Below the pieces are notes generated by a model. The model worked only from the letters and a program-made list of their open reading frames with translations, made no database searches and was not told the DNA's origin. A stretch of DNA of 28,645 bases from a virus. Taxonomy: Duplodnaviria; Caudoviricetes. The position numbers were made by a program, and so were the translations under genes. Of the stretch, positions 5,682-24,251 are shown piece by piece (position 1 is the stretch's first letter; each line of letters begins with the position of its first letter). Where the stretch lies: positions 1 through 28,645 of IMG/VR virus record IMGVR_UViG_3300011335_000330. One strand, given 5' to 3'.

Positions 5682-6800
5682 CTATACTTTAGTTCCGTAA
5701 ATCTTACGAAACAATTCGTTAGTGACCTTTTGTTGTGTCTCAGTCAGCTTGTTCCCATAAGACAAATCAATGGCTCTCTTTATGGTGTACCCCGTAAGCA
5801 TTTTTTTGCAAACAGACTGTAGAGCACGGGGTGACATTGTAAGAGTTAGTTGATTGGAGGAATATCCTTGCCGAATAAGATTGCCAAACTTAACCAAGTT
5901 CTTAATAACATCTGTTGCCAGCTTAGGAAACTTACCCTCTAGCATCTTGCACTCAACATTTTCCAGCATGTACCCCATACGGATAGTAGTTCCAAACCTA
6001 TCCAGGGTTGCTGTGTTTTGTACGTTGGTTCCGCTGTGTGCTCCTGTGTCATCGCCCTGACCCTGGGTATTACCCAGAGCAACAATGCGAAACCTGTCTT
6101 CTGGAGTAATGAACTTCTCTTCTGAAGACCCAGGCATTTCTTTCAGGAACAGTTTCCCATCCTCTTCTAGGAGCCACTGTAGGCCCATTGTGATCTCAGG
6201 AGGGGTAACGTCCCATTCATCCCACGCAAACACGGCTCCGTAGCGTACAGCCTCTGTAGCAGTGCCATCTACCCAGAAAGTAGACCCATCTTTGGCAGCT
6301 TGTTGCCCAAAGATCATAGAACTGTCCATATCTCCTGTGCAATTCAGCCTGAAGAAAGGACGACCTGTGTGAGCACAGAGTTGCTCGACTATAGAGCTCT
6401 TACCAGCACTGGTGGGCCCATAGATAAGGATCTTATCTTTGCTCTCCCATGCCATCAGGATGTCTTTGGTAACTATCGGATCTAAGACATAGGTAGGATT
6501 TACCTTAGGTATAAACCCTCTGATACGTTCATCCCAATCTTCTGGAACATATTTAGACACTGGAAAATCAATGTCAAACTCAAGACTAGGCAACAGATCT
6601 TTTACGTACACTTGTTTTGTTTCAAGAACTGTTGAAGCAATGTATACCACTGGTTTGATTTTAACAACAGACAAAGCAACAGATTCGTCTACCTCTGCGT
6701 GTACATCCACCTCCTCAACTCCTTTACGCCGTGATATGGCGTCTTTGATTGCTGTTTTAACCAAATCTTCAACAGGAACCACTTCTGATTTAATAGTCAT
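5682..6800 (-). CDS. MoxR-family AAA+ ATPase (CobS/CbbQ/NorQ-like)
   Basis: Walker A GPTSAGKS, Walker B FAWDEWD, FRIVALGNT, ATLDRF and SPRAL. Confidence 0.92.
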   Translation of the reverse strand: MTIKSEVVPVEDLVKTAIKDAISRRKGVEEVDVHAEVDESVALSVVKIKPVVYIASTVLETKQVYVKDLLPSLEFDIDFPVSKYVPEDWDERIRGFIPKVNPTYVLDPIVTKDILMAWESKDKILIYGPTSAGKSSIVEQLCAHTGRPFFRLNCTGDMDSSMIFGQQAAKDGSTFWVDGTATEAVRYGAVFAWDEWDVTPPEITMGLQWLLEEDGKLFLKEMPGSSEEKFITPEDRFRIVALGNTQGQGDDTGAHSGTNVQNTATLDRFGTTIRMGYMLENVECKMLEGKFPKLATDVIKNLVKFGNLIRQGYSSNQLTLTMSPRALQSVCKKMLTGYTIKRAIDLSYGNKLTETQQKVTNELFRKIYGTKV

Positions 6801-9589: not shown

Positions 9590-10138
9590 TCATTTTCCCT
9601 CTACAAAATAGTTACGTGTCGGCGTTTGCCATTCTTTATCCGGGTTCGGTGTAATCCACGATTCATCGTGCCAGACTAGCCGATTGTTCGGGTATGCAAT
9701 CCACGGCCCCGACTCCAGCGCGATGATGTGATGGTTTTTGTGCTGGTGCGCTACCTCACTCCAGCCTGTTTTCATCCAGTCAATTGTAAAAAGATAATTG
9801 CCTTTACGTATAACCTTGTCACGGCCTAGTGCAGTTACGGAATGGTTCTTTAGAAACGGCAGCGCCACTACGGAGAAATCATACCCGTAACTATCCCACC
9901 AGCACGCTTGCTCAATTGGCAACGGCTCGCAGGGTTTGCTGCAAAGCATATGAATTGGCACTCTTGCCCACTGCGCCCCTGACTCAAGCATGACCTGAAA
10001 CATAGGAACACGCGCAGGTTCGGCACGAAACGCAAACGCAATGGCTGGCGTAAATTCACCAAACCCTTTTTGTTCGTCAAACAAAAACTCTTGGCGAACG
10101 TAACAGGGCGTGTAGGGTGTTTCTCCTAACAGTGTCAT
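9590..10138 (-). CDS. Conserved aquatic-phage hypothetical protein, 182 aa
   Basis: CYVRQEFL...GFGEF, GAQWARVPIH, YLFTIDW, HKNHH and YPNNR motifs. ATGA coupling. Confidence 0.8.
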   Translation of the reverse strand: MTLLGETPYTPCYVRQEFLFDEQKGFGEFTPAIAFAFRAEPARVPMFQVMLESGAQWARVPIHMLCSKPCEPLPIEQACWWDSYGYDFSVVALPFLKNHSVTALGRDKVIRKGNYLFTIDWMKTGWSEVAHQHKNHHIIALESGPWIAYPNNRLVWHDESWITPNPDKEWQTPTRNYFVEGK

Positions 10139-11966: not shown

Positions 11967-12093
11967 GACGAGCCGCCCTTCGCCCCCAAAGGGGGGCGGC
12001 GAGGAGAACTCGCGTCACTAACTTTTAGTTTTTCCTCCTTTCCTTGTTTGGTTGCAAGCCGAAGGCCCACGTAGTTTGTGGGCCGAGGGTTGC
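11967..12093 (+). other. Structured intergenic element A (two-hairpin module)
   Basis: GCCGCCCTT-CGCCCCC-AAAG-GGGGGCG-GCGAG, plus a 40-nt hairpin at 12054-12093 with a GAA/GA internal loop. Homologous to element B. Confidence 0.75.
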
Positions 12094-12263: not shown

Positions 12264-12400
12264 TTCCTATCTCCCAGGTCTTCGCACTCTTGATCGGTGT
12301 GGCAGTCACTGTCCCAGAGTTGGGTATCCAGCATGTGTTTGTTAATAAGTACGGTATTAACTACAGTCAAAAACAATAGCAACATCAATAACTTATTCAT
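12260..12400 (-). CDS. Small secreted or membrane protein, 46 aa
   Basis: Not in the ORF track. MNKLLMLLLFLTVVNTVLI...DCHTDQECEDLGDRK, with AAGGGA RBS. Confidence 0.65.
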   Translation of the reverse strand: MNKLLMLLLFLTVVNTVLINKHMLDTQLWDSDCHTDQECEDLGDRK

Positions 12401-12465
12401 TTTATTCCCTTTGTGTTTAATTTATTTTATTCTTTGTCAGGCACCTCTTCTTCTCTTCCTGGGGC

Positions 12466-12660
12466 TTATCTGACAACCTTTTGTTTCCTGGTGTCGTTTC
12501 CGTTGAACGACTCCCACCAGTAGGCACTATTGCCCGGTGAGTCCCACTCCGCTAGGAAATCGTGGTTGGAAGAACACGCCGCCATCGACATGGCTTGCGC
12601 GGCTTCCTCTGAATGTGCTGCACAAAACTGAAATTGATTTTCCATCAATAAATTATTCAT
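12466..12660 (-). CDS. Hypothetical early protein, 64 aa
   Basis: GAGGA RBS. Its initiation region is nearly identical to that of the gene starting at 12400. Confidence 0.65.
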   Translation of the reverse strand: MNNLLMENQFQFCAAHSEEAAQAMSMAACSSNHDFLAEWDSPGNSAYWWESFNGNDTRKQKVVR

Positions 12661-12686
12661 TTTATCCTCTTTGTTATTTACTTAGA

Positions 12687-12813
12687 GCAGGCGCAGGCTC
12701 GCCGCCCTCACCCCGAAGGGGTGGCGAGACTGTGACTGCGTTCTCGACTCTCGTGTTATTAGTAACAAAGCTTGCAGCTCGAAGGCCACAGCAACACCGT
12801 GGCCGAGAGGTGC
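12687..12813 (+). other. Structured intergenic element B (two-hairpin module)
   Basis: Long stem at 12687-12739 capped by ACCCC-GAA-GGGGT, plus a 40-nt hairpin at 12774-12813 with a GAA/GA internal loop. Covaries with element A. Confidence 0.78.
12754..12767. promoter_or_regulatory. Palindromic operator-like site TGTTATTAGTAACA
   Basis: Exact 14-mer found four times in intergenic DNA. This copy lies between the two hairpins of element B. Confidence 0.65.
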
Positions 12814-13139: not shown

Positions 13140-13172
13140 TTGGTTCTCTATTGGTTGGTGAACAAACGGAAA

Positions 13173-13197
13173 GGTAAGGGAGACTAGCTCCCTTACC
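13173..13197 (-). terminator. Putative intrinsic terminator or attenuator
   Basis: Perfect 10-bp stem GGTAAGGGAG/CTCCCTTACC followed by TTTCCGTTTGTT on the minus strand. Preceded by a TAACCC-GCAA-GGGTTA hairpin at the stop codon. Confidence 0.55.
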
Positions 13198-13214
13198 CTT
13201 GTAACCCTTGCGGG

Positions 13215-13430
13215 TTAGTCCTTCTTGGCGGCTTTCTTCGCGTCAGCTTCTTCTTTGATCAGCTTCGCGATCTTGTTTGCTTTCACCATGATCTCCCGAA
13301 CTTCGGAGTGGTGGTCGCTGTTGTAGTCATCCAGCATGTGGCTGTAACGCCGCATGAGGGTAACTGCTGCCCACAGGCAAAGAGGAGTCGGAACTGCATC
13401 CAAGCTATTAAAACTGAATTGATTATTCAT
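13215..13430 (-). CDS. First gene of the early arm, hypothetical protein, 71 aa
   Basis: AAGGGA RBS, helical Lys/Ala-rich C-terminus and a downstream terminator. The frame is intact, unlike its inverted copy. Confidence 0.75.
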   Translation of the reverse strand: MNNQFSFNSLDAVPTPLCLWAAVTLMRRYSHMLDDYNSDHHSEVREIMVKANKIAKLIKEEADAKKAAKKD

Positions 13431-13468
13431 TGTGTTTCCCTTCTTTAGTTAACTGGGGACATCCCCCA

Positions 13469-13627
13469 AAAAGTCCGAGCAAACCAACAGCCCCGAAGGG
13501 CAGGGCACTACATTGGTAGCGGCAAGGCCGGAAGGCCCAACGCCGTGCCACGGCTTTATCGTGGCGCGGGTGCCGCAACCTCGCGGGCTGTAAGAGGAAC
13601 TACCGCAGCCCGCGCACCTAGCGAGGC
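13469..13627 (+). other. GC-rich multi-hairpin element C (apex of the fold-back)
   Basis: GCCC-CGAA-GGGC; GCGGCA/TGCCGC enclosing GGCC-GGAA-GGCC and GTGCCACGG/TCGTGGCGC; CCTCGC/GCGAGG; GCGGGCTG/CAGCCCGC. Confidence 0.7.
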
Positions 13628-13926
13628 TGGGGGTGTCCACAGATAACTACAGAAGGATAAGAAACACAGTGAATAAACAATTCGGTTTTGTTTTAATAGC
13701 TGGGTGGATGCAATTCCTACACCTCTCTGCCAGGTTTGTGGGCTGCTGTTACCGTCTTGGGACGATACAGCCGCTGGAATGACTACGGCTTCAGCGGCTA
13801 CCGCACCTAAGATCGGGTTGGTGGAGGCAAACTTGCTCGGCTTATCAAAGGAGAGGCTGAGGTGAAGATGCCAAGAGGAGACATACCCACAAGGGTAGCA
13901 AGGTAGGGGGGATAGTCACCCATACC
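13628..13926 (+). pseudogene. Non-coding degenerate inverted copy of the 71-aa gene with its flanks
   Basis: ATG changed to GTG, several frameshifting indels, and GAA changed to TAA. Probably structural rather than a decayed paralogue. Confidence 0.6.
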
Positions 13927-13996
13927 AATAGTGGTGTGGTTAAGTGGTACTTACCTGGTAGATGTTATGGATAGTAACAACAGTAGTTGGGCATAT

Positions 13997-14016
13997 GTTA
14001 GTGAGTGCTAACTTAC
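13997..14016. promoter_or_regulatory. Palindromic site resembling an SlmA-binding sequence
   Basis: GTTA-GTGAGTGCTAAC-TTAC. The core matches the E. coli SBS consensus GTGAGTACTCAC at 10/12. Confidence 0.35.
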
Positions 14017-14220
14017 TGAGTAGTAAGGGAGTTGTAATTGCTAATGTTATTAATAACTTACCGTCATGTTGTAAGCTGCATCAACCCCCACAGTTACATC
14101 ACTGCCCCTGCTGTCCTAAGCTACATCAGGTGGGGGAGGGGAAAAGCATGCTTTGCTAAAATTTATATATCACCACATGTAACGATTTTTATAGTTTTTA
14201 AATAGTGGGTAGGTACTCCC

Positions 14221-14356
14221 TATATATATATAACTACTATATAACTACTAATAACAACATATATATAACTACTACCCCCATATATATATATATATAACTA
14301 CTATATAAAAGAACTAATGTTGTTACTAATAACAACTACTATATATATAACTACTA
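14221..14356. repeat. AT-rich region with (TA)n tracts and five ATAACTACTA repeats (candidate origin, packaging or terminus region)
   Basis: ATAACTACTA at 14230, 14241, 14265, 14294 and 14347, each preceded by TA runs. Non-coding and just upstream of terS. Confidence 0.75.
14321..14334. promoter_or_regulatory. Palindromic operator-like site TGTTACTAATAACA
   Basis: Exact reverse complement of the 12754 and 16769 copies. Confidence 0.65.
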
Positions 14357-14513
14357 CTGCTCTTGCTGTTGAATCTCAGTCTAGAGCCTTATAGGGCCTA
14401 TTCTTACAAATGTAAGCGTTTTCATTTTGGCTGTAGGGTTATTAGCTATTGTTCTTTTTCACCCACTGTGGTTTACTTCCGTTCCATAGAGATATGGAAC
14501 GAGTACACAGGAT

Positions 14514-15044
14514 ATGAAGCGAGGTAGATCTAAATACCCCTGGTTTAAGAAAGCTCTCTGGACTCAGAACCAGAAGCTTGAGGCTGTAGCCACCTACGTC
14601 ATGCTTGGCAGTCTTACTGAGACTGCCTTGGTTACAGGCATCCCAAGAGACACCGTTAAGTCCTGGAAACTAACCCCCTGGTGGAAAGAGATACAGGCCC
14701 AGATCAGGCAAGACGATATACAGGCTCTGGACAGCAATCTCCAAAGGGTCATTGGGAAGGCTCTAAAAGCCACAGAAGACCGTCTGGATGCTGGGGAGTA
14801 CCAGTATGACCCCAAGACTGGCAAAGTCATCAGAATCCCCATTAAAGCCTCCGTAGCCCTAAAGATAACAACCGAGCTGCTTACCAAGCAGGACATCCTT
14901 AGGGATGTTCCTGAACGTATGGAGATTGAAAAGACCATTGATGCTCGATTAGCCAAGCTTGCTGAGGAGTTTCAGAAGTTTGCCAAGGCAAAGACAATTG
15001 ATGTGGTGCCGGATGTTATTAGTAGCATTGCTGTTACCCCTTAA
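14514..15044 (+). CDS. terS: Putative terminase small subunit
   Basis: N-terminal HTH-like segment (SLTETALVTGIPRDTVKSW) and a helical middle region. First gene of the late arm, upstream of TerL. Confidence 0.65.
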   Translation: MKRGRSKYPWFKKALWTQNQKLEAVATYVMLGSLTETALVTGIPRDTVKSWKLTPWWKEIQAQIRQDDIQALDSNLQRVIGKALKATEDRLDAGEYQYDPKTGKVIRIPIKASVALKITTELLTKQDILRDVPERMEIEKTIDARLAKLAEEFQKFAKAKTIDVVPDVISSIAVTP

Positions 15045-24202: not shown

Positions 24203-24210
24203 CAATACTT

Positions 24211-24224
24211 TGTTACTAATAACA
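24211..24224. promoter_or_regulatory. Palindromic operator-like site TGTTACTAATAACA
   Basis: Begins 9 nt after the capsid stop codon. 24208-24226 is the exact reverse complement of 12752-12770 (19 bp). Confidence 0.65.
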
Positions 24225-24251
24225 CGGAGAGGAATAAACCCCTCTTCGTGT
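24222..24251 (+). other. mRNA stem-loop downstream of the capsid gene
   Basis: ACACGGAGAGG/CCTCTTCGTGT 11-bp stem with one G-U pair on the coding strand. No clear U-tract. Confidence 0.55.

Follow-up and report, generated by a model that had tools for sequence, protein, structure and literature searches.

The DNA analysed here (the window) comprises 28,645 bases of an uncultured podophage-like genome. Genes for replication (exonuclease, PolA, DnaB, primase and a MoxR/vWA pair) run leftward, genes for terminase, portal and capsid run rightward, and a long fold-back sits between the two blocks (Table 1). An earlier note had read this fold-back as an inverted copy of the first early gene, referred to below as gene 1. 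Self-blastn recovers the copy, aligning 13173-13466 with 13926-13629 over 316 columns at 71.8% identity (E 2.9e-37); it is the sole self-match in the window at E<=1e-3 and is missed by an ungapped repeat search. Leader, SD, the whole 71-aa ORF and the terminator-like hairpin all fall inside arm 1, as the note had listed. A strand-neutral alignment of the two arms holds 229 identities and bears out the earlier hand counts: the longest perfect run is 12 bp, bulges of 1-5 nt are present on both arms, and like-with-like mismatches number 20 (A.A 10, T.T 7, G.G 3, C.C 0). The reading frame of arm 2 is broken by 13 indels.

Table 1. Features of the fold-back locus, in window coordinates
Feature	Position	Strand	Basis or detail
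Intrinsic-terminator-like hairpin of gene 1; arm 1 stops here	13170..13200	-	outer end 42 nt past stop
Arm 1, template strand of gene 1 with leader and terminator	13173..13468	+	self-blastn, alignment
Gene 1, product of 71 aa, predicted to form a two-helix hairpin; family conserved but unannotated	13215..13430	-	pLDDT 83.7
Gene 1 leader: SD-like stretch and short hairpin; inner end of arm 1	13431..13468	-	sequence
Branched core, rich in GC, the family's conserved unit	13469..13627	+	92.5% identity to L002
C(GAA)G mini-hairpin motif in core	13492..13500	+	sequence
Core helix B: 13519-13524 with 13571-13576	13519..13576	+	DNA fold
Three-way junction with small hairpin 13526-13537, C-GGAA-G loop	13519..13576	+	DNA fold
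Core helix A: CCGTGCCA (13543-13550) with TGGCGCGG (13562-13569), recurring T.G pair	13543..13569	+	cross-locus comparison
Arm 2, non-coding mirror of the gene 1 unit that evolves fast	13628..13926	+	alignment
G-rich motif common to the wider family, candidate genome-end marker	14132..14145	+	205 nt right of arm 2
Putative small terminase TerS, start of late arm, anchor	14514..15044	+	precedes TerL; weak HTH match

Smaller repeats and hairpins occur elsewhere in the window. Hairpins lie upstream of other early genes at 12054-12092, 12687-12739 and 12774-12813, and two of them share a plus-strand GAA/GA internal loop; their plus and minus z-values are -5.1 vs -2.9, -3.9 vs -1.1 and, for the third, -1.6 vs -1.8; possible roles are as additional ssDNA elements or as sites of RNA processing. 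A 42-nt direct repeat (12383-12424 and 12643-12684, 83%) spans the SD and the opening codons in two small early genes and resembles the start of gene 1. An exact 19-bp inverted repeat with an internal TGTTA/TAACA palindrome, a possible operator or promoter motif, is found before an early gene (12752-12770) and, 11.4 kb away, after the capsid gene (24208-24226), with a similar sequence near 14318-14335.

The fold-back is unlikely to be an assembly artefact, because an X12 contig from a variant strain, differing from the window at 40 letters and 4 gaps, crosses 13170-14230, a contig from X2, which may be the source of the record, also crosses it, and relatives carry a fold-back at the same place with unrelated arm sequences. 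This sequencing-run evidence comes from contigs of 7 of 22 runs, and the runs that contain the fold-back are recorded as river, lake, sediment and virome samples. The only RNA run, X20, gives zero cover on the fold-back and carries no weight either way.

Folding of 13150-13950 with RNA parameters gave -443.2 kcal/mol (z -22.0) for the plus strand and -391.0 kcal/mol (z -18.7) for the minus strand, and DNA parameters gave -231.6 (z -20.3) vs -206.2 (z -18.5) kcal/mol; none of 20 shuffles matched any of the four energies. The strand comparison that the note had proposed as a check thus comes out in favour of the plus strand, the template strand of gene 1, under both parameter sets. The wobble bias reported by hand count also holds in the strand-neutral alignment, with 17 plus-strand G.T pairs vs 4 A.C (binomial p 0.0036); the other plus-strand mismatches are G.A 2 and C.T 5.

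Relatives were collected by TerL, which matched 172 viral contigs; 80 were kept, giving 46 rows with at least 1.5 kb upstream of TerS. The set used below comprises 39 loci, the window and 38 others, each with gene 1 and core. Rows left out were L057 (the same element as L054), the distant L005 and L086, and L028, L038 and L063, whose contigs end before the element. L011, a close TerL relative, was also left out; at the same place (6060-6498) it has a branched GC-rich stem-loop of about 330 nt, with neither a gene 1 match nor the core motif. No fold-back was found in L005 or L086 (scores 30 and 36). The search for equivalents that the note had suggested therefore divides in two: gene and core recur in all 39 loci, which mark a widespread set of uncultured freshwater phages, whereas a long, near-whole-gene mirror arm is present in only 15, the other 24 having short or weak arms. 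In 13 of the 15, the inner end of the long arm is 38-65 nt upstream of the ATG, and outer ends fall between -47 and +78 nt relative to the stop. When wobbles are allowed in the scoring and the search is widened, 12 of the 15 still run from leader to terminator, and L002, L004 and L058 run past the terminator. Short arms typically span the SD and first codons. The long/short label changes 8 times on a quick TerL tree, at least 6 of these being forced, and arm length differs between L017 and L018, whose TerL is identical, and between L052 and L058, whose TerL is near-identical.

A second search, anchored on gene 1, gave 57 loci, of which 32 lie on contigs of the first set and 1 starts inside the gene, leaving a fresh set of 24 loci that includes several near-duplicates; the query P0063 returned no locus. 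The core motif lies 146-185 nt upstream of gene 1 in 23 of the 24, the last being truncated, and the plus strand pairs better than the minus strand in 22 of 23.

Gene 1 belongs to a conserved family of 71-84 aa, with 131 clusters at E<=0.001 in a large library. Searches of Pfam, PHROG and PDB gave no informative match to its function: Foldseek against PDB returned nothing at E<=0.001, the best Atlas match (0.83) is an uninformative lead only, and BFVD returned only uncharacterised proteins of uncultured phages. With the window gene 1 itself as query no viral contig was matched, and blastn and tblastn against isolate phages gave no matches. In GTDB genomes, three 17-residue matches were judged spurious, and no prophage or host was found. 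The leader is presumed to be the region of transcription start.

The earlier note had taken the fold-back itself as the element. The fold is confirmed; the conserved unit, however, is the branched core within what the note treated as the loop and had overlooked. Across the family this core is about 200 nt long, branched, and adjoins gene 1. It starts with a recurring helix, TG(C/A)CA with TGGCG(C/T), in which a T.G pair is kept. A three-way junction comes next, its small hairpin on the 5' strand, and then a second helix in which covariation is visible; only in part of the loci does the energy model yield this layout. In the window, the GAA mini-hairpin can also be read as UUCG on the opposite strand. 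The distant locus L156, with a 144-aa gene 1, has the same branched design on a base stem of about 20 bp and no mirror arm; an expected scaling of arm length with gene length failed in this locus. The core is the constant unit and the whole-gene arm an optional, labile extension. A long arm is not essential, because arms are short or weak in 24 of 39 loci, absent in L156 and mismatched in L157.

Where a long arm is present, it tracks the gene beside it, as the note had asked to be tested: across 14 long-arm loci, the scores of arm 2 are 66-286 with the arm 1 of the same locus, compared with no more than 47 for any arm 1 from another locus. Between the window and L002, identity is 92.5% in the core, 92% in the right flank and 95.7% in TerS, compared with 70.9% in arm 1 and 62.5% in arm 2, which is the fastest-evolving part. 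Against the L001/X12 strain, arm 2 of the window has 27 changed positions and three insertions; 13 of the changes become Watson-Crick pairs, four go to G.T and a few break pairs. At 13263/13840 and 13461/13634 both sides have changed with pairing kept, and two changes in arm 1 break pairs. A second strain in X5 carries different sequence in both arms, which are covered to a similar depth (3.7 and 3.9). Contig L157 combines a window-type gene with an arm of the L002 type, and its own pair scores 43 vs 199 and 224 crosswise; it may be a natural recombinant or a chimeric assembly, the strains sharing a near-identical core. No near-perfect young arm copy was found among the 15 long-arm loci, although such copies may assemble poorly.

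The mismatches between the arms are not placed at random. The note's suggestion that long perfect runs are avoided stands: the longest runs measure 8-13 bp, and all 14 loci fall under the mean of their permutations, 9 of them individually at p<0.05; the loci are related, so that p-values overstate independence. Mismatches are also spread more evenly along the arms than by chance, and may guard against SbcCD or RNase III.

The kinds of mismatch bear on which strand folds. Pooled over 14 long-arm loci, plus-strand counts are G.T 269 vs A.C 67, G.A 135 vs C.T 36 and G.G 49 vs C.C 9, with A.A 87 and T.T 52, whereas a null from flank composition gives 202/134, 99/83 and 52/27 for the three contrasts. 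The flanks are C-poor, and the bias exceeds their skew. Together with the wobble bias in the window, this agrees with the note's claim of selection for a folded plus strand. The G.T bias is absent in L008 (9/9), L045 (8/9) and L039 (5/5), and the minus strand is equal or better in L039, L043, L045 and L048. A preference for G.A over C.T fits DNA mismatch energetics. Cores folded alone favour the plus strand in 36 of 39 loci with DNA parameters and in 30 of 39 with RNA parameters.

A parameter-free hairpin count in the cores gave 26 C(GNA)G triloops on the plus strand vs 0.8 in shuffles; these use all four N (GAA, GCA, GTA, GGA), comprise 16 distinct instances and occur in 19 of 39 loci, and the reverse-complement form numbers 4 vs 1.8 expected. 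Other core loops are GNRA (8 vs 1.7 expected) and UNCG (2 vs 0.4), and GCTA/GTTA tetraloops violate the GNRA rule. A looser mini-hairpin motif is found 94 times on the plus strand vs 27.2 expected and 17 times on the minus strand vs 11.5; it is also raised on both strands of other early intergenic DNA and depleted in late genes. By strand it numbers 59 vs 5 in 23 fresh loci, 7 of which lack it, and six vs zero in L156. C(GNA)G-type mini-hairpins are far more stable in DNA than in RNA and are found at the G4/St-1 origins, RSF1010 ssiA and N4 promoters, according to passages of PMC13037366; excerpts of PMC3201870 confirm the effect of C:G closure and describe one similar RNA triloop. Sense-strand UUCG loops were seen by eye in the gene 1 terminators of 7 of 15 loci, and RNA hairpins of these genomes thus follow RNA vocabulary. 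It is probable that one strand folds as DNA, a conclusion better supported than what the fold does. Among the roles that the note had listed, loop and mismatch evidence thus favours a self-made duplex template over a rod-like RNA.

Searches for a promoter in or near the core were largely negative. A linear scan for sigma70 -35/-10 pairs gave no plus-strand and 1 gene-sense match in 39 cores, and none in the window. Sigma70-like sites on the gene-sense strand show no excess in the cores (1 vs 1.7) or in arm 2 and flank (18 vs 29.8), nor do rightward sites left of the core (19 vs 41.2). A recurring TG-extended -10 precedes TerS, and L005, which has neither arm nor core, has by eye an extended -10-like site before its first gene. 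The core motif resembles the sigma54 box: a TGGCAC-like box with GC ten bases after GG occurs in 26 of 32 distinct core instances, the cores having been located by nearly the same pattern, and this pattern is not present in L156. A sigma54 promoter was largely dropped as a candidate, with no sites in the window and 4, 7 and 9 in three genomes vs 1-7 in shuffled sequence. Sites in these genomes lie mostly inside ORFs, and some early ones are coding coincidences inside gene 1 and a neighbour. Matches to PF00158, expected of a cognate activator, are weak and in the relative G001 fall within a MoxR-type ATPase gene. The distant L005, which has no fold-back, carries a textbook sigma54-like site on the plus strand (10096-10111) at the position of the core motif, roughly 925 nt ahead of TerS. 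No phage RNA polymerase was seen, although a very diverged enzyme may exist; the largest proteins of G001 and G004 (1502 and 1386 aa) show no polymerase motifs and no Pfam or PDB match, and are LPD38-like by Atlas. Beside the LPD38 ejection-type gene of G001 lies a GARS-like ATP-grasp protein (L087:14700-16022), possibly for DNA modification.

The position of the element relative to a genome end was assessed from the G-rich motif and from contig ends. Arm 2 ends 128-283 nt before the motif in 10 of 15 long-arm loci and at it in 1; the motif was not found in the other 4. Three early-side contigs (L109, L125, L146) terminate on the motif or slightly beyond it, and three late-side ones (L013, L022, L049) begin on it or slightly ahead of it. 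Of 41 left contig ends, 30 lie no more than 2 kb from TerS. Because right-hand ends cluster too (13 of 26 in one kb, 5-6 kb past TerL, L006-L085), which suggests a hypervariable or hard-to-assemble site after the capsid gene, contig ends are weak evidence for a terminus. Depth in X5 doubles at 13963-14526, and coverage gaps over arm 2 occur in X4, X6 and X11; a terminal repeat, a single-stranded gap, strain mixture or filtering may account for these. If the early terminus were here, the plus strand would be the 3'-ended strand, left single by resection. Between the G-rich motif and TerS, 14221-14345 is AT-rich with a 24-nt perfect direct repeat and TATATA palindromes, and is a candidate origin or packaging signal; similar low-complexity palindromes occur in L005 and L086. 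A Fur-box-like palindrome lies right of arm 2 or at the equivalent place in L002 (1426-1441) and L005 (about 10230), and is absent from the window.

Several described systems share parts of this design. Single-strand priming signals of a related kind include the M13 minus origin and plasmid sso. At Frpo/ssi, as excerpts of PMC11541004 present them, one strand likewise folds as a duplex mimic upstream of first-expressed genes, with an imperfect long stem and host polymerase presumed; the predicted fold and strand bias here give such a stem-loop upstream of early genes. Unlike Frpo/ssi, the present element is carried by tailed dsDNA phages, for which single-stranded entry is not known, and lies among phage terminase, portal, capsid and PolA genes in place of a conjugative leading region; no sigma70 -35/-10 consensus was found in 39 cores or the window, the core is branched with mini-hairpins, and the stem can cover a whole gene as a co-evolving mirror. 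N4 early promoters, in passages of PMC4496689, share the template-strand GNA triloop with C-G closure, which is present here, as well as strand asymmetry, a location at the first-entering end and the difficulty of releasing RNA from ssDNA. Their hairpins, however, are of 5-7 bp, supercoil-extruded and read by a virion RNA polymerase, whereas the present folds are of 200-750 nt and no such enzyme was found in G001 or G004. In its proposed workings the element is like Frpo and in its loops like N4, and it lacks the defining marks of both. The G4/St-1 origin and RSF1010 ssiA likewise form a branched ssDNA fold of 150-250 nt with mini-hairpins, active on one strand (excerpts of PMC13037366), but belong to ssDNA phages and plasmids and have no gene mirror; priming by the present element would be by analogy only.

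The mirror itself recalls two further systems. In the hok fbi and T4 gene e leaders a mirror covers SD and start codon; these locks are short and on the mRNA strand, whereas here pairing is best on the opposite strand, with a few loci neutral. The template repeat of a DGR is likewise a non-coding copy beside a fast-changing gene, but the differences here are not adenine-specific, all mismatch classes and many indels being present, and the ORFs examined revealed no reverse transcriptase. Rfam gave no match at gathering score or E<=1 for the window and 20 loci, and searches of the open-access literature yielded no phage element with a gene-length mirror arm.

We tentatively favour a model, which we rate slightly short of an even chance, in which the element, located near the early end of the genome, is a Frpo-like ssDNA promoter whose mirror arm acts as surrogate for the non-template strand. 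The plus strand, as template of gene 1, would fold into the branched core on its long imperfect stem, most likely while the DNA is transiently single-stranded near that end; single-strandedness in vivo could arise from a packaged 3' tail or gap, from host 5'-to-3' resection or from displacement replication. The core would then likely be the start site for host RNA polymerase, the presumed binder, with transcription beginning in the leader. Transcription of ssDNA leaves an RNA:DNA hybrid in the N4 system, for which this is a documented problem (passages of PMC4496689). Here the mirror arm would replace the missing non-template strand, so that gene 1 could be transcribed and the message could leave its template. 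Short arms, which reach over the leader and start codon, may contribute to this in part, and the even scatter of mismatches would prevent the duplex genome from forming a recombinogenic palindrome. Against an ssDNA promoter, the family looks like ordinary dsDNA podophages and the fold has no evident -35/-10 pair. In a broader form, which we consider possible but more doubtful, abundant dsDNA podophages would expose the 3'-ended strand of the entering end as ssDNA and bootstrap infection from a folded promoter studded with mini-hairpins and, in many lineages, a co-evolving decoy arm, the first gene being transcribed only from refolded ssDNA, possibly in answer to host end resection.

Rather unlikely, in our estimate, is that the core is an ssDNA signal for replication or end handling, either a site of priming by primase or RNA polymerase or a hairpin that primes itself and caps the 3' end left by resection, with the arm as a by-product of fold-back copying, kept imperfect and serving mainly as protective duplex. 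DNA-type loops and plus-strand bias are equally expected under such a scheme, the core persists where the arm is missing or flips in length, the element is near a presumed genome end, and priming sites of G4 and RSF1010 bear mini-hairpins (passages of PMC13037366). The ends of most long arms, however, match the leader and terminator of gene 1, the phage has its own primase and helicase, and a young, near-perfect copy is missing from the 15. We give still less weight to an RNA fold, whether a rightward rod antisense to gene 1 (a decoy, polymerase mimic or processed regulator) or an arm-2 RNA that invades the template. RNA tolerates G.U well, and L055 and L074 have 54 and 48 wobbles; RNA parameters and the GNRA excess are also compatible with it. 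Against it, C(GNA)G triloops dominate, including GCA, GTA and GGA, some tetraloops break the GNRA rule, the G.A bias over C.T is as strong as that of G.T over A.C, and neither an Rfam match nor an excess of rightward sigma70-like sites was obtained.

A translational lock is a poorer prospect again. In the manner of hok fbi or T4 gene e, a leftward early mRNA from right of arm 2 would pair over SD, start codon or whole gene, which agrees with the typical reach of short arms, with a minus strand that also beats its shuffles and with the four loci in which that strand folds at least as well. The mRNA-sense strand, however, holds the destabilising A.C, C.U and C.C mismatches and no special loops, no conserved leftward promoter was found right of the core, and a lock over a whole gene would be hard to open. 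Least probable in our assessment is an old inverted duplication whose functionless arm is kept alike by occasional arm-to-arm conversion and strand-biased mutation, only the core mattering, perhaps when extruded by supercoiling as at N4 promoters. The speed of arm 2 evolution, the C-poor flanks, the lability of the arms and, if L157 is real, its tolerance of mismatch are in keeping with such neutrality; a bias above flank skew, over-even mismatches and single-site compensations between strains argue against it, as do transversions and transitions of 368 vs 336 in arm mismatches compared with 33 vs 121 among strain variants in X5.

Tailed dsDNA phages are assumed to start transcription at duplex promoters, and N4 at tiny supercoil-extruded hairpins. 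A conserved DNA-type fold of one strand, up to 750 nt long, implies either a single-stranded stage at the entering end or a new DNA-structure signal. It also offers a natural design rule for stable gene-length fold-backs, with no perfect run above 13 bp, and marks the gene 1 family as a likely first-acting host-takeover or counter-defence factor. Both the expression of a first gene without a polymerase of the phage's own and the survival of the entering end against host exonucleases become testable. If the Frpo-like promoter in its broader, ssDNA-bootstrap form is true, it could be a general strategy of early expression not described so far.
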